64,000 nucleotides of DNA, taken from assembly GCA_965237835.1 (NCBI GenBank), contig OZ250160.1, positions 1,225,439 through 1,289,438 of the forward strand, in the 5' to 3' direction. This DNA comes from Candidatus Poribacteria bacterium (GTDB taxonomy: Bacteria; Poribacteria; WGA-4E; WGA-3G). The position numbers were made by a program, and so were the translations under genes. How positions within the stretch are numbered: the first letter of the stretch is position 1; every line of letters begins with the position of its first letter. Shown here piece after piece: positions 8,251 through 62,841 of this stretch. The notes under the pieces are model-generated. The model was not told the origin of the DNA. It saw only the letters and a program-made list of their open reading frames with translations, and did no database searches.

Positions 8251-8256
8251 ATTTAT

Positions 8257-13440: not shown

Positions 13441-13485
13441 AGAAAAAGGAGCGGGCTTTCCTCCCCTACCTGAAGGCAGGGGTCT

Positions 13486-14184: not shown

Positions 14185-14428
14185 AAAAACATTAAGTTGA
14201 TTGAAACACTCACAAGTGTTAGCAAATTGGTGAAAGCACTGACCAAAGAAATTCAACGACTCAATGATAAAAAACCAGACTTCGAACTTCTTCTTGTATA
14301 TCTTAGAAACGAAACTCATGGTATCTATTTGGCACACACCGCTCTTTCCGATGCACGAAATACACATTATGAATTCCAAAATGCTAAAATTAAGAGTAAA
14401 CCATAGAATTGTAATTTAACCATACAGA

Positions 14429-15367: not shown

Positions 15368-15550
15368 GAACTATCTTGATTTACCTGATTTGTAAATCAA
15401 AGTCACACTGAACCCTAAGAACATTCAGTGTCGATTTAGTGTTTCATTAAATCCACTAAAGGATTCTACATTTATAATTGTCATTGTCATTGTCAAATTG
15501 TCTGTGGTATACTTTTTAAGTTGAAAATGCTTTATCAAAACACTACTGAT

Positions 15551-15639
15551 ACCCAATTAACGTGATTAGAAGTTTTCTCATAGCGGTTAGCATTGCGAGG
15601 CACGGGGACCTCGCGCTACAGATCGGGTTAATTTGGTAT
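15551..15639. repeat. family-B MITE-like element ending ttaatttggtat 36 bp before the 15675 start codon
   Basis: acccaattaacg...attgcgaggcacggggacctcgcgctaca...gggttaatttggtatga. Confidence 0.8.
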
Positions 15640-15674
15640 GAGACTATTAAAACACATACAAATAACACAAAAAT

Positions 15675-20674: not shown

Positions 20675-20715
20675 TTATCTCCTTGAATTTAAGAAAACTT
20701 GATGATGTAGACCTA

Positions 20716-21504: not shown

Positions 21505-21506
21505 TC

Positions 21507-21704
21507 CTACTGCCCTCCCCGCTGGATATAGTTTTCGACGAATTCCTCTGAATTTTCTTCTAAAATCTCATCGATTTCATCAAGAAGTGCATCTAAATCC
21601 TCAGTCAAATCGTCGACGTTTTCATTGAGTTCGGGATTGGGTTGGATCTCCTCATTTTCATTGGTGGGATGATCTCGGTATTCTTGCTGTTTTTCGCGTG
21701 GCAT
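21507..21704 (-). CDS. pup: prokaryotic ubiquitin-like protein Pup
   Basis: 65 aa, acidic, ...DLTEDLDALLDEIDEILEENSEEFVENYIQRGGQ; C-terminal GGQ as in Pup. Confidence 0.85.
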   Translation of the reverse strand: MPREKQQEYRDHPTNENEEIQPNPELNENVDDLTEDLDALLDEIDEILEENSEEFVENYIQRGGQ

Positions 21705-21796
21705 GTTGTACTCCTTTTCAATTCTGGCAACGGATACCCGTATGCCTCTATGTTTTCGAACATAATTCCATCAGGGAAAACTTTTTATCAACAAGA

Positions 21797-24410: not shown

Positions 24411-24432
24411 AATCAAGTGGAATCATCAAACG

Positions 24433-26238
24433 TTAGAGATATGTCCCGCCTGTGCTCACTCGCACATCAGGACGTGCCTGTGGTTCATTGATTAAGGCTC
24501 GAATGTTGACAATTTTCTCACCTTTCCTGCCAGATATTTTTGCCCAATCATCTGGATTAGTTGTATTTGGAAGGTCTTCATTTTCATGGTACTCTTCCCG
24601 AATAGCAGTCTTCAGATCATGCAGAGAAATTCCTTTTTCTTTCCCTTCTGAACTGATTAGACGTTTAATCGCTATTTTCTTTGCCCGTGAAACAATGTTT
24701 TGAATCATCGCACCGCTAACGAAATCTTTGAAAAAGAGAGTCTCGCGTTCGCCGCGGGTGTATGTTACTTCAATAAACCTATTCTCATCTGTGGTCGCGT
24801 ACATTTCGTCTACAGCCGCAGATATGAGGTATTCTGAAACGTCATCAGTATTTCCATCAAACTTTTCTATTTCTTTTTTCGCAAACGGAAGATCCGGCGT
24901 TAAATAGATACCAAAAATATCCTTAGCACCGTCAATATTCGGACGGTCAATCTTGATTTTGATGTCAAGTCTTCCCGGTCTCAAAACAGCGGGATCCAGA
25001 AGGTCCTGTCGATTACTTGCGCCGATAACAATAACATCACGTAAATTTTCTACGCCATCAATTTCTGCGAGAAACTGTGGTACCAGTGTAGACTCCATGT
25101 CTGATGAGATACCTATGCCGCGTGATCGGAACAGTGAGTCCATTTCGTCGAAGAAGATAACTACTGGGAAACCCTCTTTTGATTTTTCACGTGCTTTTAG
25201 GAACACCTCTCGTATCTTTCGTTCAGTTTCACCGACATACTTATTGAGAATTTCTGGTCCCTTAATATTTATAAAATACCCTCTAATATCATCTCTATCG
25301 GTCTGTTGACGAATACGTTCTGCGAGGCAATTGGCAACCGCTCGCGCAATTAATGTTTTTCCACAGCCTGGCGGTCCATACAGGAGTACACCTTTTGGCG
25401 GCATAAGATCAAATTCGCGGTACTCATCTGGATAAAGATAAGGCATTTCAATGGCGTCTCGAATCGCCTCTATCTGTGTATCCAAACCACCGATGTCAGC
25501 ATAACTAATATCTGGAACTTCTTCGAGCAGTAGGTCATCAAGTTCGCGTTTTGGAAGTTTTTCAAGTAGCATACCGCTGGTATGATTCAATAAGACGCTG
25601 TCGCCGGTCTTCAAAGTTTCGTTTTTCAACGCTGCAGAAACGCGCACGACTTGTTCTTCATCTGTTCTGAGGTTGACAATAGCGCGGTCAGATTCAAGTA
25701 CCTCTTTTATCTTAACAACATCACCGTGTTTCTCAGGCTGTTTGATTGCGATGACATTTAAGCCACTATTCACGATGACTTCTTGTCCTACTTGTATTTG
25801 ATCGGCTTTTATGGCAGGATCAAGATTCACACGCCATTTTTTTCCGCTGATATCTACATCAATAGTGTTGTCATCGTTCGCACTAAGGAAGATGCCGTAG
25901 TTGTTTGGAGGGGCACTGAGTTGCTTAACCTTCTCTTTTAGGAGTTCAAGTTTCTCTTTTGCTTCTTGAAGGGTACTTGTGATTTTTCGGTTGCGTCTGT
26001 GCGCCTGCATAAGTTCGCGCGTCATTTCATAGAGACGTGCGTCTACATCTTCATCAGGAGCTGCTCTGAGTTGTCTTCTCAGGTCACCGACTTCGTTCTC
26101 AAGCATCTCTATCTGCCAATTTAACTCACGTATTAACTGTGGATAGTCAACCGAATCTGATTTGATCCCTTCAATATCGGGACCTTTCAATATATCAGAT
26201 GAAGTCTCTATTTTGCTTGCCATACAAGAATTTCTCAC
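24433..26238 (-). CDS. arc: proteasome-associated AAA ATPase (ARC/Mpa)
   Basis: 601 aa; N-terminal coiled coil, AAA+ GPPGCGKT; C-terminal ...GGTYL resembles GQYL docking motif. Confidence 0.9.
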   Translation of the reverse strand: MRNSCMASKIETSSDILKGPDIEGIKSDSVDYPQLIRELNWQIEMLENEVGDLRRQLRAAPDEDVDARLYEMTRELMQAHRRNRKITSTLQEAKEKLELLKEKVKQLSAPPNNYGIFLSANDDNTIDVDISGKKWRVNLDPAIKADQIQVGQEVIVNSGLNVIAIKQPEKHGDVVKIKEVLESDRAIVNLRTDEEQVVRVSAALKNETLKTGDSVLLNHTSGMLLEKLPKRELDDLLLEEVPDISYADIGGLDTQIEAIRDAIEMPYLYPDEYREFDLMPPKGVLLYGPPGCGKTLIARAVANCLAERIRQQTDRDDIRGYFINIKGPEILNKYVGETERKIREVFLKAREKSKEGFPVVIFFDEMDSLFRSRGIGISSDMESTLVPQFLAEIDGVENLRDVIVIGASNRQDLLDPAVLRPGRLDIKIKIDRPNIDGAKDIFGIYLTPDLPFAKKEIEKFDGNTDDVSEYLISAAVDEMYATTDENRFIEVTYTRGERETLFFKDFVSGAMIQNIVSRAKKIAIKRLISSEGKEKGISLHDLKTAIREEYHENEDLPNTTNPDDWAKISGRKGEKIVNIRALINEPQARPDVRVSTGGTYL

Positions 26239-31435: not shown

Positions 31436-32899
31436 ATGGAAAAGTTTACTAAACCCTCCGGAACGAACGAAAAGTTTACTAAACCCTCCGGAACGAACGA
31501 TTTTCTGCCTGAACAGATGGTTCAACGAAATTTCGTTGAGAAAATCGTTTGTGAAACGTTTGAAAGTTATGGATATGCACAGATTCAGACACCACTGTTT
31601 GAATCCTTCGCGCTTTTATCCGCGCAGTCCGGCGAAGAGATACGTCACAAAATGTTTACGTTTGTTGGTCCAGATCGGGTAGATTATGCGCTGAGACCTG
31701 AACTCACCGCACCTGTCTGTAGAATCATTGCAAATGATGATCTACAACATCTGCCATATCCCTATAAATTATATTACATCGGACAATGTGTGCGTCAAGA
31801 ACCGAAGACCGACAACCCAGAGGTTAGGCGCGAATTTCGACAGGCAGGGGTAGAACTGATTGGTCCCGGATCGGCACTTGCAGACGCAGAGATTATTACA
31901 CTACCTGTCCGCATCCTTGAGAAACTCAACATTTCAGGGACGAAGTTGAAAATCGGTAATACCGGTGTATTTCGTGAGATTTTTAAACAGGTAGCCCTTG
32001 ATCCAAAAGATCATAGTGAGGTGATATTAGATATTGATCATCTTTCTCGGCTGCGGGTGGAAAGCCAATTTTTGGATTTGGATACGCTTAGTGATGAACT
32101 CAATATGTTGCGGCGTTTGCAAGGACCTGACTACCAAGGTGACCACAAGATTGAGACATCCACTATTCAGGAATTAACAGAAAGCAGTGCTGCTACTTGG
32201 GTAGAGAAGTTGCCGATGATTGCTGAGGACACCTATAAGGCGAGATGGCACCGATATTTCAATATCTCAGAAGATATTGCACAACGTTGTATTGATGTCT
32301 CAAAGATCAGTGGCGATAAGGATACGGTCATGTCAGCGTGGGAAACGATTCTTGGTGATACAGCACAGGAAGTTCGCCAAGAGCTGCGGACACTTTGCAA
32401 ATGTTTGGAAAACTATGAAATTACCGACTTTGAAATCAATTTGGGTATTACGCGCGGGTTTGATTTTTATACGGGGACAGTTTTTCAGATTGAATTGTCG
32501 GAGAAAAACTTACCAATCTGCGGTGGCGGAAGATATGATCGGTTGATTGAAAGTTTTGGCGGACCGTCACTTCCGGGGGCAGGATTTGCGTTCCAATTTG
32601 ATTCGCTGATGGAGGCGTTTACTGAAACGCAGCGAGAAACGGTTCAAGCGAAAAAGGATTACTTTATTGCGACAACATCCACGGATCTAATGCCTATAGC
32701 GCAACGTCTTGCTGAAAAACTGAGACGTTCCGACAAAATCGTAGAGGTGGATTTAATGGATCGTGACATAAAAGCTCAGCATGACTATGCTGTCCAAGCA
32801 AATTATGATTATCTGATCCGCTTAAACTCGAATGAATCGATGTGGCGAATAGACCTGAAAACTGACAATACAGAAGAGGTGACTATCAAAGACCTTTAA
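31436..32899 (+). CDS. hisZ: ATP phosphoribosyltransferase regulatory subunit (HisRS paralog retaining anticodon-binding-like domain)
   Basis: 487 aa; class-II aaRS HisRS-like catalytic core without HisRS signature; directly upstream of hisG; in-frame 30-bp tandem duplication at 31439-31498. Confidence 0.75.
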   Translation: MEKFTKPSGTNEKFTKPSGTNDFLPEQMVQRNFVEKIVCETFESYGYAQIQTPLFESFALLSAQSGEEIRHKMFTFVGPDRVDYALRPELTAPVCRIIANDDLQHLPYPYKLYYIGQCVRQEPKTDNPEVRREFRQAGVELIGPGSALADAEIITLPVRILEKLNISGTKLKIGNTGVFREIFKQVALDPKDHSEVILDIDHLSRLRVESQFLDLDTLSDELNMLRRLQGPDYQGDHKIETSTIQELTESSAATWVEKLPMIAEDTYKARWHRYFNISEDIAQRCIDVSKISGDKDTVMSAWETILGDTAQEVRQELRTLCKCLENYEITDFEINLGITRGFDFYTGTVFQIELSEKNLPICGGGRYDRLIESFGGPSLPGAGFAFQFDSLMEAFTETQRETVQAKKDYFIATTSTDLMPIAQRLAEKLRRSDKIVEVDLMDRDIKAQHDYAVQANYDYLIRLNSNESMWRIDLKTDNTEEVTIKDL

Positions 32900-32935
32900 A
32901 TGGATATAGACGAATACGAAACCTTCCTATATCTA

Positions 32936-33018
32936 ATATCAAATTAACTTGATTCGAAGTTTTCTGATAAAGTCAGCATTGCGAGGCACGGGGACCTCGC
33001 GCTACGAATTGGGTATAA
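32936..33018. repeat. family-B MITE-like element 17 bp upstream of hisG start
   Basis: atcaaattaacttgattcgaagttttctgataaagtcagcattgcgaggcacggggacctcgcgctacgaattgggtataaa. Confidence 0.8.
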
Positions 33019-33034
33019 AGCGAGGAAACCGATT

Positions 33035-33805
33035 ATGGAAACAGAACGGATGTTGAATCTACTTTTGCCGAAAGGCACTATACAGTCTGAAACACTTGAG
33101 ACGTTTCAGCGCGCAGGCTACGAATTAAACGGATACAAGTCAACCGATCGGTCTTATCGTGCTACCTTTCAAAACGATAGCGAATTCCAGATAAAGATTT
33201 CTCGTCCGCAAGAGATACCGGTTTATGTTGGCATGGATGATTTTTATGATTTGGGAATCACTGGACAAGATTGGGTTGAAGAGACCGATGCGGATGTTGA
33301 GGAGATTCTTCCGTTGGACTATGGGTTTGTTAGTATTGTTCTTGCTGTTCGCGAAGAACGGAAGGACATCAATACTTTCACGGATTTGGTGAACCTTGCG
33401 GATAGAAACATTCGCATTTCTACGGAATATCTGAACATCGCGGAGAAATATATCCTTGAAAAGACAGAAAACCGCGTAGCACCTGCGATTCTAACCCCAT
33501 GGAAGCGATTGAACACCCTCGGGACTTACCAGTCCCCCATCACACTCATGCTGTCTTTCGGCGCAACAGAGGGGAAACCGCCTGAAGAGGCGGATGCTAT
33601 CATTGACAATTGTAGTTCAGCACGCACGCTTAAGGCAAACTACCTCAAGATAATTGAAGTGCTACGTGAATCCGAATCTACGCTGATTGCAAATCCGAAA
33701 TCGCTCAAGGATCCATGGAAACGTGAAAAGATTGAAGAACTGAAGCAGACATTAGAAAAAGGATTGCGGAGACGGCGAAGTCAAGCACTTCCCGGACACA
33801 TTTAA
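33035..33805 (+). CDS. hisG: ATP phosphoribosyltransferase
   Basis: 256 aa HisG-like N-terminal and catalytic regions. Confidence 0.8.
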   Translation: METERMLNLLLPKGTIQSETLETFQRAGYELNGYKSTDRSYRATFQNDSEFQIKISRPQEIPVYVGMDDFYDLGITGQDWVEETDADVEEILPLDYGFVSIVLAVREERKDINTFTDLVNLADRNIRISTEYLNIAEKYILEKTENRVAPAILTPWKRLNTLGTYQSPITLMLSFGATEGKPPEEADAIIDNCSSARTLKANYLKIIEVLRESESTLIANPKSLKDPWKREKIEELKQTLEKGLRRRRSQALPGHI

Positions 33806-33817
33806 GGAGCAAAAATT

Positions 33818-35146
33818 ATGGCGACCATTAAACCGCGCGTCCCCCGTGGCATGAGAGATATATTGCCTGAACAGATGATTCGTAGACAATATGTTATAGA
33901 TGTTATTCGCGATGTATTTGAGGAATTTGGGTTTGAACCGTTACAGACTCCCGCGCTCGAATTGTCTGAAGTGCTCACAGGTAAATATGGACCGGACGCA
34001 GAAAAGCTGATTTATCAAGCTGGACATACTGGTGGTAAAGAGGATATCTCATTACGCTACGATCTTTCTGTCCCGCTCTGCCGTGTTGTAGCGATGTATC
34101 CGCAATTGCCGAAACCGTTTAAACGGTATCAAATTGATCCTGTGTGGCGCGCAGAACGTCCGCAAAAGGGACGTTATCGCCAATTTTTCCAGTGCGATGC
34201 AGATACCGTTGGAAGCGATAGTATGTTAGCTGACGCGGAAAATGTTAATCTCATTTATCAAGTCCTTTTCCGTCTCGGTTTTTATGACTTTGAGATTAAT
34301 ATCAACAACCGGAAACTAATTACCGGGATAGGGGAATTCACTGGCGTGCCTACTGAACAACTTGGCGGCCTCTATCGCGCTATTGATAAATTGGATAAGA
34401 TCGGTTTGGATGGTGTCACCACAGAATTACGAGAAAATGAGATTCCGGAGGATGTTATTGCAAACTTGCTTAAGTTGATCCAAATTGAGGGACCTTCAAA
34501 GGTAGTGCTGGATGAACTTTATGAACAACTCGGACATCTGGATATAGCTCGGGAAGGCATCGCTGAATTGGGTGAGTTAATCCGTTATCTTATGATATTT
34601 GGCGTTCCAGAGGAGATATACAGGGTGAACGTTGCTATGGTGCGCGGTTTGGAATACTATACCGGACCAATTTATGAGACGGTAGTTAAAGAACCGAAAA
34701 TTGGCAGCATCACAGGTGGCGGTAGGTATGATGAACTGATCGGTAGTTTTGGTAAACAGAGTTTTCCTGCAACCGGTACAAGTTTCGGCATTGAGCGGAT
34801 TATTGACGTAATGGAAGAATTTGATATGTTTCCGTCTACTGTGAGGAAAACGGTGACGCAAGTATTAATGACCGTTTTTGATGATGATCTGATGGAAGAA
34901 TCTCTTAAATTAGCGACTCGGCTACGTCAAGGCGGTATCCGAACAGAGGTCTATTTCCGTCCTACGCGAATTAGTACGCAAATGAAATATGCCAATGCGA
35001 AAGGTATCCCTTACGTTGTTATTCTGGGTTCGGATGAGTTAGCTGCAGGCACTGCTGCTGTTCGGGATTTGGCAACCAGAGAACAAGAAGATGTTCCATT
35101 GGATAAGGTTGTTGATCGGATTAAGCAGTTGATAGAGAAAACGTAA
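33818..35146 (+). CDS. hisS: histidine--tRNA ligase
   Basis: 442 aa; class II motifs, GGRYDELIGSFG, anticodon-binding domain. Confidence 0.9.
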   Translation: MATIKPRVPRGMRDILPEQMIRRQYVIDVIRDVFEEFGFEPLQTPALELSEVLTGKYGPDAEKLIYQAGHTGGKEDISLRYDLSVPLCRVVAMYPQLPKPFKRYQIDPVWRAERPQKGRYRQFFQCDADTVGSDSMLADAENVNLIYQVLFRLGFYDFEININNRKLITGIGEFTGVPTEQLGGLYRAIDKLDKIGLDGVTTELRENEIPEDVIANLLKLIQIEGPSKVVLDELYEQLGHLDIAREGIAELGELIRYLMIFGVPEEIYRVNVAMVRGLEYYTGPIYETVVKEPKIGSITGGGRYDELIGSFGKQSFPATGTSFGIERIIDVMEEFDMFPSTVRKTVTQVLMTVFDDDLMEESLKLATRLRQGGIRTEVYFRPTRISTQMKYANAKGIPYVVILGSDELAAGTAAVRDLATREQEDVPLDKVVDRIKQLIEKT

Positions 35147-39929: not shown

Positions 39930-40703
39930 ATGCTTACGCGTAAACAGAAATTAGAATTCTATGAAAATGGTTATATAAAAGTTCCTGGTGTCGTGCCGAA
40001 GTTAATGATAGATGCTGCTCGCAAGACAATCAATCATTCTATCGGTGCTGTTGGACTGCATGAGGGGGACTTAGAAAAGTTTCGTGCACAATCGTATTGC
40101 AGCGAGATTAGGAAGGCACCGCAAATTGTGGATATTTTCAGTAAAACACCTATCCAAAATATCGCTGAATCGATGTTAGGTGAGGGAAATGTGCAAGTGC
40201 CAGGTTCAGGACAGATAGCACTTCGGTTTCCGATGCCGTTAGACCGCGATGCAAATGAACCACGCGGACACCTTGATGGATTAGGCAATGGATCAAACGG
40301 AATGGCGAAGGGTGTTTATCGGCGCGGTTTTACAGCGTTAGCAGTGGTATATCTGGCAGATGTTCCTGAACCGTATAGCGGTAACTTCACGGTATGGCCC
40401 AAAACACACAGTTTCTTTGCGGACTATTTTAAAAAGGAAGGGCATGAGGTTTTAGCAAATGGAATGCCACGACCAGAACTTCCTGAAGGTCCCACACAAA
40501 TAGTCGGCAAGGCTGGAGATGTCGTTCTGACACATCACCAGGTCGTCCACTCAGCAGCGCCGAATGCGTCCCCAGATGTCCGTTACGCGGTTATTTTTCG
40601 TGTGCGGCATGTTGACTGTGCCGAAAACAGTTATGATAGTTATACCGATATTTGGCGTGAATGGCCGGGAATTCAGGAAGCATTAGACGCGGCAAATAAC
40701 TAA
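39930..40703 (+). CDS. phytanoyl-CoA dioxygenase (PhyH) family Fe(II)/2-oxoglutarate oxygenase
   Basis: 257 aa; YENGYIKVPGV N-terminus, H-x-D and distal His typical of PhyH fold. Confidence 0.7.
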   Translation: MLTRKQKLEFYENGYIKVPGVVPKLMIDAARKTINHSIGAVGLHEGDLEKFRAQSYCSEIRKAPQIVDIFSKTPIQNIAESMLGEGNVQVPGSGQIALRFPMPLDRDANEPRGHLDGLGNGSNGMAKGVYRRGFTALAVVYLADVPEPYSGNFTVWPKTHSFFADYFKKEGHEVLANGMPRPELPEGPTQIVGKAGDVVLTHHQVVHSAAPNASPDVRYAVIFRVRHVDCAENSYDSYTDIWREWPGIQEALDAANN

Positions 40704-40762: not shown

Positions 40763-41587
40763 CTATTTTGCGTTTTTAATTTCTCCCCATGTCATGCTCA
40801 ATTTGTCCACAGGTTCGACTGCAAATGGATCCCCATTGGATAAATAGAGGCTTTCCACCTCATCTGCAGAAAGTGCTCGGTGGAACATTAGGAACTCATC
40901 CATCAATCCTTTGAATGTCCACGACGCGGGAGTCGCGACACCATTAAATGCTGTGGCTTCAGAACCAACCCCGATGAATCCGTACCGTTGTAATTTCGGT
41001 CCGATCATTTTATTAGTAGTAGCTGTGGCTTCCTCTACATCCACTTTACCATCAACATAGATCCGCTTCATATCGGCATTAAAAGTTGCCACGACATGAT
41101 GCCATTGATCATCCGTAACTTTAACATTACCGTGCCAATCCTTTATAGGACAACAGACATCAAAAGCGATAAAGTCCGTTTGATCGATTGCAGCATCTCC
41201 AGCTGCAAAACGGAAATAGTCGCTTCGATCCCAAGAGGCAATCATCCCTCTATCAGCAGTCTTAATCCATACCGCGATGCTAAGTTCCGGTATACCTTCG
41301 GTATAATTGAGATTTCGCACTGAGATATATTCGGTTGCCCCACCAGGAAATTCCATACATTCGTTAAATTTTCCCTCGTCCACAATCTTGAGATCGTTAC
41401 CGTGGAGGAAGCCGTCATTCTCATTTCCGGACACATCTAAGATATCTTCACCCTTAAGGGAGGCATCGTCAAAACTATAATAGATGACCAGGTCTTTATC
41501 ACTTATGCTCCGCGCGTGGACAGTCAACGCAAGTACTGTTAGAATTAGTGTTAGCGTCAATAGTTGGAAAATCAAAGAGGTTTTCAT
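40763..41587 (-). CDS. secreted LamG/concanavalin A-like lectin domain protein (paralog 1)
   Basis: 274 aa, signal peptide; ~60% identical to 42209..43033 ORF. Confidence 0.7.
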   Translation of the reverse strand: MKTSLIFQLLTLTLILTVLALTVHARSISDKDLVIYYSFDDASLKGEDILDVSGNENDGFLHGNDLKIVDEGKFNECMEFPGGATEYISVRNLNYTEGIPELSIAVWIKTADRGMIASWDRSDYFRFAAGDAAIDQTDFIAFDVCCPIKDWHGNVKVTDDQWHHVVATFNADMKRIYVDGKVDVEEATATTNKMIGPKLQRYGFIGVGSEATAFNGVATPASWTFKGLMDEFLMFHRALSADEVESLYLSNGDPFAVEPVDKLSMTWGEIKNAK

Positions 41588-42208: not shown

Positions 42209-43033
42209 TTATTTCGTGCTCTTAATCTTTCCCCACGTAATACTCAATTTCTCCGCGGGTTCAATAGCAAATGGATTCCCAGACGCATTCGCAAGACTTC
42301 CAACCTCCTCTGCAGAAAGTGCTCGGTGGAACATTAGGAACTCATCCATCAACCCTTTGAAAGCCCAAAAAGGTCCAGTGGTTCCATCAAAAGTCACAGC
42401 TTCTGAACCAATTCCGATAAATCCGTAACGTGTCACAGCCTTTCCTATCATTTTGTTGTTTGTGTCTGTGGGTACCTCCACATCCAATTCACCGTCAACG
42501 TATATCCGTTTCATCTCAGCATCAAAGGTTGCAACAAGATGATGCCAATTGTCATCAGTGACATCAATTTTACTCCACCAATCCTTTATAGGGCAACAAA
42601 CATCAAAAGCAACAAAGGTTGTGGCTGCGTTCCCACCTATGTCATCGCCTACAGCAAAACGGAAGAATTCACTTCGATCCCAAGAGGCAATCAGACCTCT
42701 TTGCGCTGTCTTAACCCATACCGCGAGCGACAGTTCCGGAAATACGTCGGTATAATGATGGTTTCGCACCGCAATGTAATCAGATGCCGCCCCCGGAAAC
42801 TCCATACCATCGTTAACTTTGCCCTCAACAATTTTGAGATTGCTGCCGTTGAGCAAACCGTGATTCTCATTTCCGGATCCGTCCAAGATATCTCCATCTT
42901 TATGGGTGTCCTCGTTGAAACTGTAATAGATGATGAGTTCATCTGTGCTGATTCCCTGCGCGTGGGCAGTCAACGTTGTAACAGTCAGTATTAGCGTTAG
43001 CGTCAAAAGTGTAATAAAAAAATAGGTTTTCAT
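42209..43033 (-). CDS. secreted LamG/concanavalin A-like lectin domain protein (paralog 2)
   Basis: Start taken at MKTYFFITLL (43033); signal peptide. Confidence 0.7.
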   Translation of the reverse strand: MKTYFFITLLTLTLILTVTTLTAHAQGISTDELIIYYSFNEDTHKDGDILDGSGNENHGLLNGSNLKIVEGKVNDGMEFPGAASDYIAVRNHHYTDVFPELSLAVWVKTAQRGLIASWDRSEFFRFAVGDDIGGNAATTFVAFDVCCPIKDWWSKIDVTDDNWHHLVATFDAEMKRIYVDGELDVEVPTDTNNKMIGKAVTRYGFIGIGSEAVTFDGTTGPFWAFKGLMDEFLMFHRALSAEEVGSLANASGNPFAIEPAEKLSITWGKIKSTK

Positions 43034-43187
43034 TTCAGTTCTCCTTTTATAATTATTATAATTAATAGGCGCGTTTACAAGCGCGCAGATTATAGACAGT
43101 TTAAGAATATCCACCCACACCTAACAACAATAGTTGCCTCGCTACGTTCTTAATCCATGTAATGCGAGAAGTTACCTAAACATTGCA

Positions 43188-43994
43188 TTACCCTTTCAAA
43201 AAATCTCCAGGGATGCGCGATCCGGGATAATTCCCATTTTCATCTCGATTAGCAATCGGTTCAGGAATCTCGTGATCCCAATAGTCAGGGACGGTGTTTG
43301 GTCTGCTATGCCATGCAAGGATCAAGGTTCGGCGTTTATCAGTATGATTTTTGTGGGCAGCGTGCAAGAGCCTTGCATCTGCGATCACCAATGATCCCGC
43401 TTTTGCGTACACATCTACCTGGTCTGGGTGATCACTGAACATGATGGGATGGTTCTCATCAACAAACCGTGCCCCTTGTTCATGTGCGGGTACTAACTCA
43501 TCATGCAAATCAATGCGCTTGAGATGTGTGCCGGGAACCACCTTTAGGCAACCATTTTCAGGTGTAGTATCTGCCAGATAGTAATTAAGAAAGATGGTTT
43601 GGGGCCAGGGTGCACAACTGAGCGGGTCATTCCAACGCATCCAGTCTTGATGCCAATAGAGTGCGGGTCCGCCAGATTCTTTCGTTAAGATAATAATTCC
43701 GCCAGAAGCCATGAAATCTCCGAAACCTATCTGTTCCAGCGCGTCCCAGGATGGTTGCCATTTCAGTAACTTCTCAATGTAAGGGTTATCTGCTCCGCGT
43801 ACATTCACGTGTTGTCCTTGATAGACTAAATCCGCAGGTTCAACGTGGTTTGTGATGAGTCGTTCCGATTCATCGTGCAGTTCCTGCAAGAATTCATCTG
43901 TCAAAATATCGTCAACAATGCAGAAACCGTCACGCAGCATCTGTTCCCGTTTTTCTAAAGCGACTTCAGGTATCATCCAATTAATGCTCCTCAA
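43188..43994 (-). CDS. PhyH-family dioxygenase
   Basis: 268 aa; WHQD (H-x-D) and LLHAAHKN His motif; alternative start MIPEV at 43976. Confidence 0.75.
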   Translation of the reverse strand: MRSINWMIPEVALEKREQMLRDGFCIVDDILTDEFLQELHDESERLITNHVEPADLVYQGQHVNVRGADNPYIEKLLKWQPSWDALEQIGFGDFMASGGIIILTKESGGPALYWHQDWMRWNDPLSCAPWPQTIFLNYYLADTTPENGCLKVVPGTHLKRIDLHDELVPAHEQGARFVDENHPIMFSDHPDQVDVYAKAGSLVIADARLLHAAHKNHTDKRRTLILAWHSRPNTVPDYWDHEIPEPIANRDENGNYPGSRIPGDFLKG

Positions 43995-44954: not shown

Positions 44955-45770
44955 GTGAACGCCGGAAAAACAATCAATATACCTAAGCTTGAACTTTCTC
45001 CTCAGGAACGGGCTGAAAGCAAGCTTACACCAGAGAACCTTGATGCTGCCACGCGTCTTTTACGCGAGACAGGATTAGTTGTTATTGAGAGTGTTCTCCC
45101 ACGCGATTGGATAGAAGAGGTTAACGTTGCGATGCAAGCAGGGCTTGATATGGAAGAAGATGACCAAAACGGTGAAAACCCGATGTTGAAAATGCCGTTC
45201 ATGGATGCACGTATTATTGACAACCCTTTTGCAATGCCGATAATGAAAGCTGCGATGGGTGAGAAGATTTTCGCGTATTTGCCCTACGGATGCAACTCAA
45301 CCTCTCCAGGATCCGAGATACAATGGATTCATAGAGATTCTGGTCAGCTCTTCCCAGAATTACCGTTCGCGTTGCCTGTTTCAACAATTGTTGTGAACAT
45401 TCCACTCGTTGATTTTACAGTTGAAAACGGTGCTACAGAGGTATGGCCCGGGTCACATCTTATCGTTGATGACGTGGCAGTACGCAATACACCGTACAAC
45501 GTTTGTGAGGAAACTCGTGCGGCACAACTCCCGTCTTTTCAGTTAGTGATGCCTGCGGGTTCGGTTGTGGTGCGTGATATGCGGTGCTGGCACCGAGCAA
45601 TGCCGAATCGAACACAAATTCACCGTCCTATGCTCGCTCTCGTCTATTTCCGAAGGTTTCATCATTCACCCAATGCACCGAACATATTCAACGCACGGGT
45701 TTCAGAAGAAATATGGATGGATATGTCCGAAGATGCACAAGAAGTTTATCGATTTCAGGCGCACGATTAG
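44955..45770 (+). CDS. PhyH-family dioxygenase
   Basis: 271 aa; WIHRDSG (H-x-D), WHRAMPN distal His. Confidence 0.7.
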   Translation: MNAGKTINIPKLELSPQERAESKLTPENLDAATRLLRETGLVVIESVLPRDWIEEVNVAMQAGLDMEEDDQNGENPMLKMPFMDARIIDNPFAMPIMKAAMGEKIFAYLPYGCNSTSPGSEIQWIHRDSGQLFPELPFALPVSTIVVNIPLVDFTVENGATEVWPGSHLIVDDVAVRNTPYNVCEETRAAQLPSFQLVMPAGSVVVRDMRCWHRAMPNRTQIHRPMLALVYFRRFHHSPNAPNIFNARVSEEIWMDMSEDAQEVYRFQAHD

Positions 45771-49259: not shown

Positions 49260-50396
49260 TTACATACCCATCAAAACCCGTAACCGATTAACCGTTTTTA
49301 TGACTTCATCGGCGACGATGTTCACCTCTTCCATCGTGTTGTAACGTCCTAAACCGAAACGGACAGTAGTTACCGCCAATTCATTGGGAATGCCCATTGC
49401 AACTAACACGTGTGATGCGGTGACAGATTCGGAATCACAGGCTGAACCTGTTGATACTGCAACACTTTTAAGCCCCATCAAGAGCGCATGACTTTGTACC
49501 CTCGCAAAACAGAGATTCAAGTTCCCCAACAAACGTTTTTCAGGATGACCGTTGAGATGGATGTCTGTTAACTGAGATGCTAATTTTTGATGGAGTGCAT
49601 CGCGCAAAGGTGCAACGATTTTTTCCTCCGTTTTCATTTCCATTGCAGTTTGACATGCTTCACACGCAGTACCTAAACCGACAATCCCTGCTATATTTAA
49701 TGTTCCGGGTCGGATACCATCTTCCTGACCGCCGCCATAAAAATGCGGTTTCAGACGATTTTCACCCTGAATGTAAAGTGCCCCGATGCCTTTCGGACCA
49801 TAAATTTTATGGGCAGTAATTGATGCCATATCAAGTCCCAACACATCCACATTCGATTCAAGTTTTCCGATGCCTTGCACCGCATCTGAATGAAAGAGTA
49901 CGCCGTGTTTAGCAGCGATAGCAGCGATTTCACGGATTGGATTGATAGTACCTACCTCGTTATTAGCGTACATGAAACTCATCAAAATAGTCTTTGATGT
50001 GATGGCAGCTTCAACATCGCCAGGGTCTACCATCCCATACCTATCTACAGGTAAATAGGTGGTTTCAAAACCTTCTGTGTCTAAGGCGTGACATGTATCA
50101 AGTACTGCGTGGTGCTCCGCCGTGCTGGTGATGATGTGGTTCCCTTTATTTTTATGTGCGTAGGCAGTTCCTCTAATCGCAAGATTGTCAGATTCTGTTG
50201 CACCACTTGTGAAAATTATCTCTTCTGGTGAGCAGCAAAGTAGATTTGCGACTTGGTGTCTCGCCTTGTCCACTGCATCCTTGGCGTCAACACCGAACGG
50301 ATGTGTACTGGCTGCATTGCCAAAATGTGTGGTTAAATACGGCAGCATTGCGTCTAACACTTCTGGCGCGATTGGTGTTGTTGCATGGTTGTCCAT
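49260..50396 (-). CDS. cysteine desulfurase (class V aminotransferase, NifS/IscS-like)
   Basis: MDNHATTP start, SGATESDN, PLP-lysine context SITAHKIYGPKG. Confidence 0.85.
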   Translation of the reverse strand: MDNHATTPIAPEVLDAMLPYLTTHFGNAASTHPFGVDAKDAVDKARHQVANLLCCSPEEIIFTSGATESDNLAIRGTAYAHKNKGNHIITSTAEHHAVLDTCHALDTEGFETTYLPVDRYGMVDPGDVEAAITSKTILMSFMYANNEVGTINPIREIAAIAAKHGVLFHSDAVQGIGKLESNVDVLGLDMASITAHKIYGPKGIGALYIQGENRLKPHFYGGGQEDGIRPGTLNIAGIVGLGTACEACQTAMEMKTEEKIVAPLRDALHQKLASQLTDIHLNGHPEKRLLGNLNLCFARVQSHALLMGLKSVAVSTGSACDSESVTASHVLVAMGIPNELAVTTVRFGLGRYNTMEEVNIVADEVIKTVNRLRVLMGM

Positions 50397-50486
50397 GTAG
50401 ATGAGGTTGCTCACGCTATCATTCCTTATGCGAAAGACACACAGTACTTCTTTGGGTGAAGACATACTGAGTGTGCCTATTACTAT

Positions 50487-58849: not shown

Positions 58850-59188
58850 ATGACACATACGAATACACAGGATTCCAACTACGACTGGGCATCAACACAG
58901 TACACCGATAAGGAAGCTTCGTTGTTGGTGATAATCCAAGAAAATTCACGATTGCCGGAAAGTGATCAATTGCGCTATCAGCAGTTATGGCGCAAATGTG
59001 AAAATGAAACTATAAGCGATGATGAACTCGTTGAGTATCAGATGCTGCTGAGTCAATTGGAAGATCGAAACCTGAAACGGATTGAAGCTCTCATGGCTTT
59101 AGCGCGATCCAGAGGAAATACATTAGAGGAAATTATTGCAGAATTAGGGATAAACAAACGCATTTTGATTATGGTGAAAAGGCGATGA
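58850..59188 (+). CDS. hypothetical protein, translationally coupled to downstream DUF3179 gene
   Basis: 112 aa; stop overlaps next start (ATGA); TGA stop. Confidence 0.5.
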   Translation: MTHTNTQDSNYDWASTQYTDKEASLLVIIQENSRLPESDQLRYQQLWRKCENETISDDELVEYQMLLSQLEDRNLKRIEALMALARSRGNTLEEIIAELGINKRILIMVKRR

Positions 59189-60273
59189 CAACCTTTAAAT
59201 CTCAAAACACCAACGCTACATTCAGCAAAAACACGTTTCATTATCTGAATATCTGCTTCTCCATCTCCACACTACTACTCTTTGTTACTCTCTACGCAAC
59301 CGCAGCGGATTACGACAAAGATCCAATCCGAACCCTATTACCCTTTGATGCAATCCCTGCTATTACGAAGCCGCAATTTGTACCTGCTATCAAAGCAAAA
59401 TTAGACGCAGATTCCCCTGTCATCGGTGTAACATTCAACGACGAAAGCCATGCGTATTCACTCTATCTGCTGAACGGACACGAGATCGTAAACGATGTAG
59501 TCGGCGGACAGAAAATCGCTACTACATGGTGACCACTCTGCAAAACGGCTATCGTGTATAGCCGGGAACTTGACGGTAAGACCTATACTTTCGGTGTCAG
59601 TGGAAAATTATGGCGAGATGCTTTGTTGATGTACGACCATCAAACACGTTCCCTGTGGTCGCATATAACTGGTGAAGCAATTCAGGGACCACTCAAAGGT
59701 AAGAAGTTGAAGCCACTCGCCTCCATGCCACAGATTGCATGGAAAACATGGATGGCAAATTACCCCAATACAAAAGTTCTATCTGTTTCATATAGAGGTA
59801 GAATGAGAGAAAGCATAGATCAAGATTCTTATGCAGGCTATCACTCCAGAAAAGACACAGGCGTGAGCGGAACGAAATACACTGATGATAGACTGCCCAA
59901 TAAATCTCTCGTGATTGGTGTTCAGGTTACTGATAATAATGGAATGATACACTATCGTGCCTATCCGCTCACACAATTTTCAGATACAGCAGTAACCAAT
60001 GACACGGTTAACGAAGTACCGTTATTAATCTTCCACGATAAAGATTCATTTGCAACGGCAGCTTTCAAGCGTAAAGTAGGTGATAGTACCCTAACCTTTA
60101 CACTGAAGGGTGACTATTTCGCGCAAGACAACTCCGGCACACAATGGAATCTAATTACAGGTGAAGCAACATCAGGTAAACACAAGGGCGCGCGTTTAGA
60201 AAGGTTACCTGCTGTCAATATCTACTGGTTCGCTTGGGCACGTTACTATCCTAAAACAACGATTTACCGTTAA
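59185..60273 (+). CDS. DUF3179 family protein with in-frame TGA (59530..59532) at the first Cys of the conserved C-P-L-C motif: candidate selenoprotein (or pseudogene)
   Basis: ORFs 59185..59532 and 59554..60273 share one frame and are separated only by TGA: ...GGQKIATTW-TGA-PLCKTAIVYSRELDGKTYTFGVSGKLWRDALLMYDHQTRSLW...; hairpin cggctat-cgtgt-atagccg at 59546-59564. Confidence 0.55.
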
Positions 60274-60280: not shown

Positions 60281-61042
60281 TCAATCGTCTAATTCAACAA
60301 CTTCGCCTGCCATATCACGATGCATTGTCGGACGGATAACCAATTCTGGTATGTTACTCCGTTGTGGTAAGGTTGCAATGAGAAGAATTGCCGATGAGGT
60401 TTCAGCGACGTCTACCATCGTAGTGCGCGCATCAGCATCTGGGGGGATCGGTCGTTTATCCAGAATAGGCGTTGCCACCTCGCCAGGGATTATGACACTT
60501 GCTCGGATACCTGTATTCCTTAAATCGTTATTAAGAAACTCGGTGAAGTTGATTACCCCCGCCTTTGCTGCCCCGTAAGCAAATCCACTAAAAGGACCAG
60601 GCGTAACCGCTGCAAGTGAGGAAATGTTGATAATCGTTCCCGATTTCGCTTTCAGCATTGCTGGCACAACTGCTTGCGTCCAGAAAAACGTCCCGATCAG
60701 ATTTGAATCAATGACCGAGCGTACCTCCTCAGGTGTTGTATTGAGAAGTCGCCGATTGTATGAACTGTGTCCAGCATTGTTCACCAACACATCAATTTGA
60801 CCAAATTTCTCAAGCACACTGCTAACTATGTGTTGAACAGCATCGCAGTCGGCGACATTAACTGCGTAACTTTCTGCTATTCCACCCGCTGCTTTTATTT
60901 CAGATGTAACAGTCTCTAACTTTGATGCTGTTCTGCCGACAATCACAACTGTCGCACCCTCTTGTGCCATTTTTCGGGCAGCATCGCCACCAATTCCGCT
61001 TCCGCCTCCTGTGATGATACACACGTGTTCCTTTAATTTCAT
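60281..61042 (-). CDS. SDR-family short-chain dehydrogenase/reductase
   Basis: TGGGSGIGG, NNAG, YGAAKAG catalytic motif. Confidence 0.85.
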   Translation of the reverse strand: MKLKEHVCIITGGGSGIGGDAARKMAQEGATVVIVGRTASKLETVTSEIKAAGGIAESYAVNVADCDAVQHIVSSVLEKFGQIDVLVNNAGHSSYNRRLLNTTPEEVRSVIDSNLIGTFFWTQAVVPAMLKAKSGTIINISSLAAVTPGPFSGFAYGAAKAGVINFTEFLNNDLRNTGIRASVIIPGEVATPILDKRPIPPDADARTTMVDVAETSSAILLIATLPQRSNIPELVIRPTMHRDMAGEVVELDD

Positions 61043-61632
61043 TCTTTACCTCCACTTGGTAAAATACGTTGGACAGCCGCCTTCACCTCTTTTGAAAACG
61101 ATTCCAGTTCATACTGTTCCTCCGAGATCTTTTCACGATGTTCATCAAACGGATATCCTCCCTTACCCGATTCATTGAAATAGGCACTGAGTTGGTACCT
61201 TTGAAAAATGTTCATGCGTGGATAATCTTCTGTCCACGGGCTTGCATCGTGAAGCAGATTCGTTGAGAAAATCGCGACATCCCCTGCTTGCATTGGAAGC
61301 GTAATTGAGGTCGGTGGATCGTGTTTTACAGGTAGATTCTCAGGTGTCTGAAATAGGGATTTATGGCTACCCGGAACAAGGCAAAATCCGGTTTCTGGCG
61401 GGACGTCTACTAATGCAACCCACGTGGCGATATGGTTACAATAGATATAACCTGCGGCAGCTTGATAATCGTTATGAGGATTACGAAACCCAGGTGGAAA
61501 TTTAAATCCGCTGTCATCACGATGAAAGTGTTGAGGAAAGTCATGCTTTGTCATCATAGTGAAATTGTAGTGAAAGAGGCGCGGCGCATTCATGGTTAAT
61601 CCAGCTACAACTCGCATAATATCGGGATTCAT
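61039..61632 (-). CDS. PhyH-family dioxygenase, apparently 5'-truncated or frameshifted
   Basis: 197 aa with HRDDSG (H-x-D) and LLHDASP; lacks ~70 N-terminal residues; upstream region shows PhyH-like N-terminal peptides in other frames. Confidence 0.5.
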   Translation of the reverse strand: MNPDIMRVVAGLTMNAPRLFHYNFTMMTKHDFPQHFHRDDSGFKFPPGFRNPHNDYQAAAGYIYCNHIATWVALVDVPPETGFCLVPGSHKSLFQTPENLPVKHDPPTSITLPMQAGDVAIFSTNLLHDASPWTEDYPRMNIFQRYQLSAYFNESGKGGYPFDEHREKISEEQYELESFSKEVKAAVQRILPSGGKE

Positions 61633-61745
61633 CGCAAGGTCTTGAAAAAGGGGATGCCCATATTGTACCTGCCATCAATAGGCGGTGCCGAAAGTGCTTT
61701 TTCAAGGGATGCTTGCTGTGGCGCATCAAGGAACGGACGCCCACC

Positions 61746-61876
61746 ATTGGCTTTTCGTTTGTCTTACAGTGCCTCTTCACCATCGGCGTTTTATAGTGCC
61801 TGCGAAGTTTCGAACGCAGTCAGCAGTGCAGCCAATGATGTCCGCAACTTCGCGCGGTGTTTTCGGATTTTCCGTG
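61746..61876 (-). pseudogene. IS630/Tc1-mariner-family transposase N-terminal HTH fragment
   Basis: Reverse-strand MRWHAIWLLADTENPKTPREVADIIGCTADCVRNFAGTIKRRW then stop resembles IS630 HTH region; no remaining transposase body. Confidence 0.4.
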
Positions 61877-62841
61877 TCAGCAAGGAGCCAAATCGCATGC
61901 CACCGCATCCGTTCCCGTAGGCATTCACATTCCAGATACCTTTGTTTAAGTGCTTCTATTGAAAATGAGGTGAAACTCCGTGTTTAGTGTTTTTCATGTG
62001 TTTAGAGTAGCAGATTAAAAAAAATAAAACAAGAATAATTCTGTTAATTTGGTATGATTTTATACAACATGTCATGTAATTCATTTTAAGACATATTATG
62101 AATATATATATAAAATAATTTGATTAAAATTAAGTTTAATGTTAAATTAAGTTTAATGTTAAATTAATGTCTATTCAATATGAGACTTCAAGTGTCGGAG
62201 TAGCGAACCAAAACCTTGTACACACATAGAATAGGTGTTGGTAAATACGTACAACATAGACAAACTGATATGTTCCGTTATGGAGTCCTTATTTATTAAT
62301 ATAAAGACAAATAAAAATTAGTTTGATATTAAATTAGTTTTAACTTATACTTAATTGTAAGTAGTAAGTCTACTTTCACGAGTTCGCGAGTATTTTTCCA
62401 CTGATTCCCCCTGTTTGAGGAGTTTATGAGGATTAAAAAATAAATTAAGTAATTCGGGCTTGACCCTCAACCTCGGTAGGTTCGGTTTCCTAACCGCACC
62501 GAACTCTACAAGGCAACTGGAAATTACCCGATTAAATTCTTAATCTTCATTTAGGAGGTCCGAAATAGGTAAAAACACCAGAGCCATTCAGTTTTCAAGT
62601 TTTCACTATATTTTAGAGAAGATCGCGATTCGGAGATCGCTCCTACAGAAGAGAGACTTGAGCATCAGATGAGAACTACCGGACAATTGAATGGCTCTGG
62701 TAAAAACACCCTCCTATCTATACCGAAACTCACCTTATTTCGGACACCGAAAATGTGTCCCTACGAAGTTAAGGTATTGAGATGGTAGCAAGAAAAAGAG
62801 GCGTGAGCGTCCTGTAAGAAAAGTATGAAGGAGAATTAATA

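Follow-up and report, generated by a model that had tools for sequence, protein, structure and literature searches.

Does the forward-strand region 59185-60273 of this Poribacteria DNA encode one protein, two proteins, or the remains of a disabled gene? Two open reading frames (59185..59532 and 59554..60273) lie there in one frame, with a TGA codon at 59530-59532 as their sole interruption. A preliminary description had reported this arrangement, together with a small hairpin downstream, and had read it as a candidate new selenoprotein of the U-x-x-C type; the frames, the TGA and the hairpin were all found where it had placed them. Our analysis of the window, by which we mean the whole 64-kb stretch of DNA, and of homologous loci makes it very likely that the region is a single, undamaged gene in which a conserved hairpin helps the internal TGA to be decoded as selenocysteine (Sec). 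The features are collected in Table 1.

Table 1. Positions in the window of the DUF3179 gene and of its proposed elements
Feature	Position	Strand	Basis
DUF3179 gene, probable selenoprotein of 362 residues, Sec at residue 116	59185..60273	+	PF11376 full profile; ORF pair intact in 80/80 Poribacteria loci
Putative signal peptide or N-terminal membrane anchor, residues 1-41	59185..59307	+	Hydrophobic core ICFSISTLLLFVTLYATAA, then DYDKD; boundary inferred
Repeat 1 of the predicted duplicated beta domain, residues ~71-199, with H99-E100-x-x-N103-D104 and U116-P-L-C119	59395..59781	+	hhalign, AF2 model, conserved columns
In-frame UGA, probable Sec codon, residue 116	59530..59532	+	TGA in 79/80 Poribacteria and 7/7 distant split homologues; Cys in 70/75 distant full-length homologues
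U-P-L-C motif (Sec116-Pro-Leu-Cys119), predicted beta-hairpin turn	59530..59541	+	Pro, Leu and Cys in 81/81 sequences; AF2 model
Putative SECIS hairpin, cggctat-cgtgt-atagccg	59546..59564	+	Perfect 7-bp stem; frozen synonymous sites; compensatory changes; bSECIS model
GTG (Val124), probable false start codon within the SECIS loop	59554..59556	+	Called by gene callers; 239-aa truncated product
Repeat 2 of the predicted duplicated beta domain, residues ~235-361, without the Cys/Sec motif	59887..60267	+	hhalign, AF2 model

The reading frame and its product

Translation across the TGA yields ...IATTW-[TGA]-PLCKTAIVYSR... within a 362-aa joined product. When Cys was placed at the TGA, this product matched the DUF3179 family (PF11376) over profile positions 2-292 of 292 with a score of 261.5 bits (E 1.3e-77; gathering-threshold cut-off, 27 bits), which bears out the family assignment made from the letters of the sequence. 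The start codon ATG 59185 and the TGA that closes the preceding ORF overlap as ATGA, and the gene ends with TAA at 60271-60273. Residues 115-119 form W-U-P-L-C, with Sec first in a conserved (C/U)-P-L-(C/T) motif. The N-terminal 41 residues are probably a signal peptide or membrane anchor, since their conservation is 0.66 compared with 0.83-0.90 elsewhere in the protein, and since classical signal or lipoprotein-type leaders are found at the N-terminus of a Cys-containing orthologue (P0001) and of most distant homologues.

Elsewhere in the window TGA is an ordinary stop codon. Of 41 genes with Pfam support, 6 end in TGA, as does the 112-aa ORF directly upstream, in agreement with the figure of about seven genes given previously. 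A scan of the window for genes split by an in-frame TGA returned the codon at 59530 as the sole plausible case; the remaining candidates were all antisense or shadow ORFs and were rejected.

Conservation of the TGA codon and of its coding context

Codon 116 is TGA in 79 of 80 Poribacteria species-representative genomes and TGT, encoding Cys, in the other one. In all 80 loci an ORF that opens with ATG runs for 93 codons or more upstream of the site, and 241-295 stop-free codons follow downstream. Amino-acid conservation within Poribacteria is 0.90 upstream of the TGA and 0.83 downstream, and both halves of the gene are under strong purifying selection. An additional disabling mutation, named previously as a possible sign of a pseudogene, was found in none of the genomes: the ORFs are intact throughout, and neither the 79 TGA genomes nor the distant homologues described below contain a second stop or a frameshift. 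OZ244616.1, a complete Poribacteria chromosome that is near-identical (97% at this locus), also carries the TGA form.

The pattern recurs at greater distance. Seven distant split homologues from unrelated metagenomes (39-46% identity) all have TGA at the column of codon 116; a second tandem paralogue was observed at one of these distant loci. The complementary comparison involved 75 full-length homologues (29-50% identity), in which Cys occupies the TGA column in 70 sequences and the second motif position in 65. Their consensus, T-[YWF]-C-P-L-C, agrees with the T-Y/W-C-P-L-C motif that the preliminary description had given for the family. About 10% of the Cys forms have A, T, V or S instead of the second Cys, and one Sec form has Ala there.

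The stretch from the TGA to the downstream GTG behaves like coding DNA. Pro-Leu-Cys follows the TGA in 81 of 81 sequences despite synonymous changes in each codon (CCA/CCG/CCT/CCC; CTC/CTT/TTG; TGC/TGT). The retention of amino acids under synonymous substitution argues that this stretch is translated.

A conserved hairpin downstream of the TGA

The hairpin begins 13 nt past the TGA. Nucleotides 59546-59552 pair with 59558-59564 and enclose an apical loop, CGUGU (59553-59557), which contains an invariant G59554-U59555 and lies 20 nt from the UGA. The element alone folds at -7.9 kcal/mol, and a 66-nt segment that includes it has a folding z-score of -0.53 relative to shuffled sequences, a value that is statistically unremarkable. 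Its significance derives from conservation and not from folding energy alone. Synonymous codon entropy drops to 0.32 bits at the hairpin codons (121-127) compared with 1.15-1.21 bits elsewhere in the gene, and every one of the six-codon windows with the lowest synonymous entropy overlaps the hairpin. The string GCT-ATC-GTG-TAT is invariant in 81 of 81 sequences, among which the alternation of G-C and G-U is the only common variant of the stem. The hairpin is retained even in the sole Poribacteria genome with TGT at codon 116 (L054; OY730443.1).

All seven distant split homologues place a hairpin at the same offset from the TGA, with the G and U of the loop invariant, the fold of one of them (L082) being shifted in register by 2 nt. 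In their alignment 93% of cells are paired and three pairs are altered on both sides: A-U to G-C in four sequences, C-G to G-C, and U-A to C-G. Since the hairpin is nearly invariant within Poribacteria, this covariation support comes from the seven distant sequences only.

The bSECIS model, as given in the legend of Fig. 2 of PMC13188914, describes a loop of 3-9 nt, an upper stem of 4-16 bp, a minimum free energy of -7.5 kcal/mol or lower, a G among the first two loop nucleotides with a U after it (usually G[G/U]), and a UGA-loop distance of 16-37 nt. The Poribacteria hairpin lies within these bounds in every respect (loop 5 nt, stem 7 bp, spacing 20 nt, -7.9 kcal/mol). The likeness to bacterial SECIS elements that had been suggested from position and size is thereby placed on firmer ground, together with the frozen synonymous sites and the compensatory changes. 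No SECIS-type family was recovered by Rfam scans of the window at gathering thresholds or of positions 59450-59700 under permissive settings, the latter giving nothing but one chance hit, below threshold and on the other strand.

Read-through at the TGA and selection at the RNA level on the hairpin are shown comparatively, by patterns in aligned sequences. By analogy with the established bacterial mechanism, the inserted residue would be Sec and its insertion would be mediated by SelB. In such a scheme the UGA would be bypassed as a stop, and the hairpin, embedded in the coding sequence, would act as a bacterial SECIS element whose apical loop, with its invariant GU, binds SelB carrying Sec-tRNA(Sec). 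Delivery by this Sec-specific elongation factor would place selenocysteine at residue 116. The predicted product, exported and 362 residues long, has a signal peptide followed by two homologous beta domains of Rieske/NirD-like type.

Neither selA, selB, selD nor tRNA-Sec was found within the 64-kb window by a tRNA scan and a Pfam search of about 50 ORFs. A class-V aminotransferase gene (49260-50465) is the sole loosely selenium- or sulfur-related gene in the window and was not counted as evidence. Published work has scored Ca. Poribacteria WGA-3G as positive for the SelA, SelB and SelD COGs and has reported Sec-type hydrogenases in Poribacteria. The literature supports the presence of Sec machinery at the level of the phylum only. 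We found in it no demonstration of selenium, by 75Se labelling or mass spectrometry, in any DUF3179 protein.

Alternative explanations of the TGA

Comparison of sequences effectively refutes the reading in which a disabling mutation or a miscall of TGC/TGT accounts for the TGA and the hairpin arose by chance. The folding energy of the hairpin is indeed ordinary, and gene callers and NCBI do annotate only the truncated C-terminal part of the gene. However, the same codon recurs in 79 of 80 independently assembled species genomes and in all seven distant metagenomic homologues, in frames that are otherwise undamaged and selectively maintained on both sides, and the probability left to this explanation is negligible. 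It is also very improbable that translation stops at the TGA, releasing a 115-aa N-terminal fragment, and restarts at GTG 59554 to give a 239-aa C-terminal one. A conserved in-frame GTG does lie 21 nt downstream and is chosen everywhere by automatic annotation, but the seven codons that separate TGA from GTG vary synonymously while the residues they encode (Pro-Leu-Cys-Lys-Thr-Ala-Ile) are kept, as expected of translated sequence, and the GTG itself is buried inside the conserved hairpin loop. Furthermore, such a split would remove the most conserved motif of the family, and the Cys orthologue (L054/P0001) and the 75 distant homologues are single chains.

The remaining alternative accepts that the UGA is recoded and assigns it to another residue: Cys inserted by a SelC*-type tRNA (tRNA-ReC), or Trp or Cys inserted by a near-cognate tRNA, with the hairpin promoting read-through. 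Sequence analysis does not distinguish inserted residues, the window holds no Sec machinery, and tRNA-ReC, which reads UGA as Cys through the SelB/SECIS route, is mentioned in PMC13582414. Against this stand the fit of the hairpin, with its invariant loop GU, to the SelB-type SECIS model, the prior listing of DUF3179 as a selenoprotein family, and the presence in the phylum of SelA, SelB and SelD COGs and of other predicted selenoproteins. Cys is moreover simply obtainable through TGT, as L054 illustrates; the maintenance of UGA in 79 species when TGT was available points to an advantage of Sec. We therefore give non-Sec recoding a small probability and retain decoding as selenocysteine as the preferred reading.

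Predicted fold, internal duplication and possible function

[quoted passage not shown] On the evidence of this alignment and this model, DUF3179 consists of a duplicated beta domain that is predicted to be Rieske/NirD-like, with the motif in the first repeat only. The motif is located between strands 94-101 and 106-111 of the model, in a beta-hairpin turn. The preliminary description had anticipated a thiol-oxidoreductase-like protein; in the thioredoxin sense this does not fit, since the predicted fold is all-beta and the motif is placed in a turn and not at the N-terminus of a helix. No thioredoxin-fold proteins were present among the structural matches to the model.

A PDB search with the profile of 75 sequences found no match with E up to 1, NCBIfam has no model for the product, and we found no characterised homologue or solved structure of DUF3179 in the literature or in the PDB profile search. 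As a side observation, hhalign of the family profile against a single approximate Rieske ferredoxin sequence gave a probability of 0.14, which is not significant, and Rieske homology by profile is a lead only. The Rieske ligand pattern C-x-H...C-x-x-H is absent from the alignment of 75 homologues, in which only (U/C)-P-L-C is conserved. The motif contains no His and is followed by no second ligand box 15-20 residues downstream, and repeat 2 is devoid of any motif of Cys or His.

For function, the chances seem to us about even that Sec116 is the nucleophile in a redox centre outside the cytoplasm, forming and breaking a selenenylsulfide bond with Cys119 in each cycle. Some members of the family do without the second motif residue (UxxA, UxxT, CxxA/T/V), an observation that speaks for catalysis by the first residue and against a strict chelate with two ligands. 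Alternatively, Sec116 and Cys119, probably with His99, might form a mononuclear metal site left over from the cluster loop of a Rieske-type protein, in which case the product would be a periplasmic metal-handling or electron-transfer protein instead of a selenenylsulfide redox enzyme. We regard this composite proposal as possible though somewhat doubtful: the CxH...CxxH pattern is missing, and a strict chelate would poorly tolerate the replacements recorded at the second Cys in both Cys and Sec forms. A broader evolutionary scenario is, in our judgement, rather unlikely as a whole. In it, DUF3179 would have arisen by tandem duplication of a Rieske/NirD-like domain, and its one (U/C)-P-L-C hairpin, descended from a Rieske cluster-binding loop, would have become an extracytoplasmic redox or metal centre based on selenium. 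If true, the fixation of the Sec form across nearly all Poribacteria would mean that these sponge symbionts depend on selenium for a core function in the periplasm.

Genomic context and annotation

The neighbourhood of the gene is syntenic, with neighbours on the opposite strand: a convergent SDR gene in 77 of 80 loci and a PhyH-like gene in 58 of 80. The upstream 112-aa ORF occurs in 17 of 80 loci only and is without a family match. Gene context across the 80 loci provided no functional hint. The PhyH-like gene at 61039-61632, which covers profile positions 90-211 only, was considered as a further split gene and rejected because its orthologues align end to end (~92% identity) and its upstream frame contains several stops.

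The main value of the result concerns annotation. Public records represent the Poribacteria DUF3179 gene as two fragments or as a truncated protein of 214-240 aa, as do many metagenomic contigs, and nearly all database homologues start with MYSR... or VYSR... precisely at the codon corresponding to GTG 59554. The true product would be an exported selenoprotein of ~340-430 aa and not a fragment initiated at a false GTG. Poribacteria would consequently gain a well-conserved selenoprotein, the literature searched on the phylum naming Sec-type hydrogenases only, and the hairpin would provide a clean, evolutionarily validated example of a SECIS element. For a family without assigned function, the internal duplication and the Rieske/NirD-like fold supply two structural leads. 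Knowledge of selenocysteine decoding itself is unchanged.

Comparison with known systems

The Poribacteria hairpin shares several features with bacterial SECIS elements that follow the bSECISearch consensus, such as those of E. coli fdhF/fdnG: it is an intragenic stem-loop immediately 3' of the UGA, G precedes U in its small apical loop, 20 nt separate UGA and loop, and its stability is adequate. It differs from them in its short, perfect 7-bp stem, in the lack of a conserved lower stem or bulged U, and in having neither sequence similarity to the E. coli elements nor an Rfam match.

At the protein level, thioredoxin-fold UxxC/CxxU selenoproteins (thioredoxin, glutaredoxin, DsbA-like, Prx-like) share with DUF3179 a Sec-Cys pair spaced by two residues, a Sec in place of a conserved Cys, and a possible selenenylsulfide. 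Their motif is positioned at the start of a helix, whereas that of DUF3179 is predicted in a beta-hairpin turn of an all-beta protein. Rieske [2Fe-2S] ferredoxins and cluster-less NirD proteins (e.g., 2qpz, 1vm9, 3c0d, 2jo6) offer a candidate structural parallel, but DUF3179 lacks the CxH...CxxH ligand set, is duplicated in tandem, is predicted to be exported, and has no significant sequence similarity to them.

The closest precedent is the family itself. A DUF3179 domain-containing protein (pfam11376, UxxC/T) is tabulated among selenoprotein families by PMC9312934 (2022) and PMC13188914 (2026), both of which credit the family to Zhang & Gladyshev 2007 (PMC1976440), where it was probably called 'OS_HP1', a name assigned here by elimination. 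The site-specific recoding put forward in the preliminary description is strongly upheld by comparative evidence, and its claim of a new form is not. The fold, origin and distribution of DUF3179 are not described in the catalogues that list it, and PMC9312934 and PMC13188914 make no mention of Poribacteria in connection with the family. With the catalogued members our gene has in common a full-length Pfam match, Sec as the first residue of an x-x-C motif, a SECIS-like hairpin directly downstream, and Cys homologues at the Sec column; it differs in its host lineage, the Poribacteria, 79 of 80 species genomes of which carry the TGA form. Given that U-x-x-C forms of DUF3179 were already catalogued, the gene is a well supported but ordinary example from the sponge-symbiont Poribacteria, and not a new selenoprotein form.

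Evidence for read-through of an in-frame TGA in a DUF3179 gene

The open reading frames at window positions 59185..59532 and 59554..60273 share one frame and are separated solely by the TGA at 59530-59532, as the preliminary description had it. Translation across this codon reads ...GGQKIATTW-[TGA]-PLCKTAIVYSRELDGK... With Cys placed at the TGA (residue 116), the 362-residue product matches positions 2-292 of the 292 in the PF11376 (DUF3179) profile with a score of 261.5 bits (cut-off, 27 bits), which bears out the family assignment made there. TGA had also been held to be a real stop in about seven other genes. It terminates 6 of the 41 Pfam-supported genes of the window, including the convergent SDR gene directly downstream, and likewise the 112-aa ORF directly upstream, the TGA of which shares bases with the start codon of the DUF3179 gene (ATG); therefore, TGA is not reassigned genome-wide. 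A systematic scan of the window revealed no other credible split by an in-frame TGA.

When one genome per species was scanned, 80 orthologous loci were recovered, all from metagenome-assembled genomes of Candidatus Poribacteria (sponge symbionts), the best being OZ244616.1 with 97% identity at the DUF3179 locus. Homologs with TGA at the same site, which the preliminary description proposed to seek, were found: TGA occupies exactly the codon of residue 116 in 79 of these loci, with TGT in the remaining one (L054), and it recurs in all seven distant truncated homologs considered below. Nor was there any additional disabling mutation of the kind that had been named as a mark of a pseudogene, since in every one of the 80 loci an ATG-initiated ORF of at least 93 codons precedes the TGA and a run of 241-295 codons free of stops follows it. 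Mean amino-acid conservation was 0.90 before the TGA (residues 45-115) versus 0.83 after it (residues 117-362). Furthermore, Pro-Leu-Cys directly follows the TGA in 81/81 sequences and is specified by varied synonymous codons (CCA/CCG/CCT/CCC, CTC/CTT/TTG and TGC/TGT).

The best 120 database protein matches are nearly all 214-240 residues long, and their coverage of the query is confined to its C-terminal 59-66%. The short matches retrieved begin with MYSR..., a start that corresponds to the GTG at 59554, or, a few to roughly two dozen residues downstream of it, with MWRDALL... or MYDHQ... The only full-length protein among these 120 is P0001, the orthologue encoded at L054, which has Cys (TTWCPLCK). 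NCBI records continue to list Poribacteria orthologues as truncated proteins (P0027 and P0031).

Such records would fit a pseudogene, a sequencing error at the TGA, or two separate polypeptides. The presence of TGA in 79 of 80 loci, the intact flanking ORFs, the conservation on both sides and the synonymous variation of the Pro-Leu-Cys codons together exclude all three. The stretch that separates the presumed stop from the presumed restart, judged by its pattern of substitution, is evolving as protein-coding sequence, which counts in particular against two polypeptides. Recoding of the TGA, interpreted as that of a selenoprotein gene, is supported with high confidence.

The hairpin downstream of the TGA

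The hairpin cggctat-cgtgt-atagccg does lie at 59546-59564, starting 13 nt past the TGA, and its supposed resemblance to bacterial SECIS elements holds for each criterion of the published model. [quoted passage not shown] Taken alone, the 66-nt segment containing it is unremarkable, with a folding z-score of -0.53 versus shuffles.

In an ungapped alignment of the 81 Poribacteria sequences, third-codon positions beside the hairpin vary freely, with up to four bases, and those within it are fixed (ACG in 78/81; GCT, ATC, GTG and TAT in 81/81 each). The sole frequently variable stem position is C/T opposite G, pairing being kept as G-C or G-U. Synonymous codon entropy is 0.32 bits in the seven hairpin codons versus 1.15-1.21 bits in the remainder of the gene, and every one of the lowest-scoring six-codon windows in the gene overlaps the hairpin. 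Codon bias was rejected as the cause, because the same amino acids take several codons elsewhere in the gene.

The contigs were located for seven truncated cluster representatives whose matched C-terminal part is 39-46% identical to P0001. In each of the seven, a DUF3179 fragment lies upstream and ends in TGA at the same column, and six have the hairpin at the same offset; in L082, one of these distant homologs, the register of the fold is shifted by 2 nt. Stem pairs changed on both sides from A-U to G-C in four homologs, from C-G to G-C in one and from U-A to C-G in one, and the loop keeps its G and U throughout. Across an alignment of 13 sequences, 93% of cells are paired in the named structure, versus 14-50% when partners are slid by 1-3 columns, and three stem pairs show double changes. 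The comparative patterns provide evidence that the hairpin acts as a functional RNA.

L054 (OY730443.1) is the only Cys orthologue among the 80 species and retains the complete hairpin sequence, which suggests a recent Sec-to-Cys conversion; its genome (4.0 Mb) is among the smaller of the closed chromosomes retrieved. At another locus, L083, a tandem DUF3179 paralogue (2723-3900) directly follows one distant Sec-form gene and carries a signal peptide and an in-frame TGA (ATW-[TGA]-PICWTAVVYSR) of its own. The frame of this paralogue appears to shift after ~230 residues, which may be an assembly error; contig coverage is only ~2x.

The inserted residue and the known family

Searching 1.84 billion cluster representatives yielded 9046 relatives. 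Among 75 full-length relatives with 29-50% identity to P0001, the TGA column is Cys in 70, in line with the family motif given in the preliminary description, and is followed by Pro in 69, Leu in 70 and Cys in 65. Some Cys forms have Ala, Thr, Val or Ser in place of this second motif Cys, and one Sec form (L086) has Ala there.

No tRNA-Sec was found within the 64-kb window, and a Pfam scan of ~50 ORFs in it detected no SelA, SelB or SelD domain. Support for Sec machinery is drawn from the literature and pertains to the phylum: Ca. Poribacteria WGA-3G is listed with two COG1921 (SelA), one COG3276 (SelB) and one COG0709 (SelD) (Slaby et al. 2017, Table S4; column order as read here), and a 2026 study places Poribacteria among phyla with Sec-type group 4 [NiFeSe] hydrogenases. 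We infer that Sec is inserted at the UGA; the alternative is Cys, delivered by a UGA-recoding tRNA of the SelC* type (mentioned in PMC13582414).

The preliminary description regarded a DUF3179 selenoprotein as a candidate new form. That novelty is lost, as the 'DUF3179 domain-containing protein, pfam11376, UxxC/T' appears in the selenoprotein tables of PMC9312934 (2022) and PMC13188914 (2026), both citing Zhang & Gladyshev 2007 on Olavius algarvensis symbionts, in which its older name was probably OS_HP1 (by elimination from their Table 2). The Poribacteria orthologues are therefore new members of a known selenoprotein family; what merits some attention is that the Sec form is near-universally fixed in one phylum, with clean SECIS evidence.

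Other genes of the window

The MoxR-containing gene set looks like an aerotolerance (Bat)-like operon, with the TnpB gene and a fragment of a DUF4143 gene interrupting it. The PhyH and Laminin_G_3 genes all lie inside 22 kb; the last PhyH copy has a Pfam match confined to the C-terminal half of the profile and is kept at that length in 58/80 loci, at ~92% identity. Upstream of it, a minus-strand frame is broken by several stops and contains a helix-turn-helix-like fragment (...RMRWHAIWLLADTENPKTPREVADIIGC...) that may be a decayed transposase.

Features of the window surrounding the DUF3179 gene
Feature	Position	Strand	Remark
MoxR AAA ATPase, DUF58 protein and BatA/VWA-domain genes	7160-18254	+	includes 859-aa VWA protein
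IS605-family OrfB/TnpB, full-length	12174-13313	-	379 aa; OrfB_IS605 and Cas12f1-like TNB domains
Long antisense shadow ORF	12243-13358		at the TnpB gene
Pup-proteasome gene cluster	18613-26238	-
Pup-ligase family genes (two)	21797-23284; 18613-19974	-	Pup-proteasome cluster
Proteasome subunits (two)	20716-21504; 19964-20674	-	Pup-proteasome cluster
IS605-type OrfB/TnpB fragment, truncated	23419-23943		between ATPase and first Pup-ligase gene
AAA ATPase with proteasomal OB domains	24433-26238	-	Pup-proteasome cluster
HisRS-like gene, hisG, canonical hisS, in a row	31436-35146	+	HisRS-like: 487 aa, tRNA-synt_His domain only, HisZ-like; hisS with anticodon-binding domain
PhyH (phytanoyl-CoA dioxygenase) paralogues (four)	39930-40703; 43188-43994; 44955-45770; 61039-61632
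Laminin_G_3 proteins (two)	40763-41587; 42209-43120
Region without convincing gene	61633-62817		~1.2 kb; holds the helix-turn-helix-like fragment
Long ORF	from near 62818		continues past window end

Fold and possible function

A literature search found no characterized DUF3179 member; the family is named in three papers there, two being the selenoprotein reviews. No solved structure matched by sequence, and no NCBIfam model matched the protein. P0001 (71% identical) was modeled with AlphaFold2 from the alignment of 75 sequences; the model is confident, with a pLDDT of 91.3 and a pTM of 0.88, and is beta nearly throughout. The two halves of the family alignment match each other by profile (probability 99.9, E 4e-35); DUF3179 thus consists of one ~130-residue domain duplicated in tandem, with the (U/C)-P-L-C motif restricted to the first copy. 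Fold and duplication are two structural leads for the family.

In 21 of the 80 Poribacteria orthologues (L002, L004, L014, L019, L022, L026 and 15 more), a collagen-like G-x-y insertion of ~18-39 residues, such as GADGIDGHAGADGQPGADGQDGADGG, lies just ahead of the second repeat; the flag PF01391 (Collagen) is attached to some copies in the databases. No such insertion is present in the window copy.

Signal-peptide or lipoprotein-type leaders open P0001 and most distant homologs, and probably the window protein as well; the motif therefore probably works outside the cytoplasm. We give an even chance to a selenenylsulfide redox center with Sec116 as nucleophile. The main rival, a metal site of His, Sec and Cys that would derive from a Rieske loop, is somewhat less likely; the ligand pattern CxH...CxxH of Rieske proteins is absent from the family. 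A redox center in DUF3179 would also differ in setting from those of thioredoxin-fold enzymes, in which the motif stands at the start of a helix, whereas the model places that of DUF3179 in a turn joining two strands.
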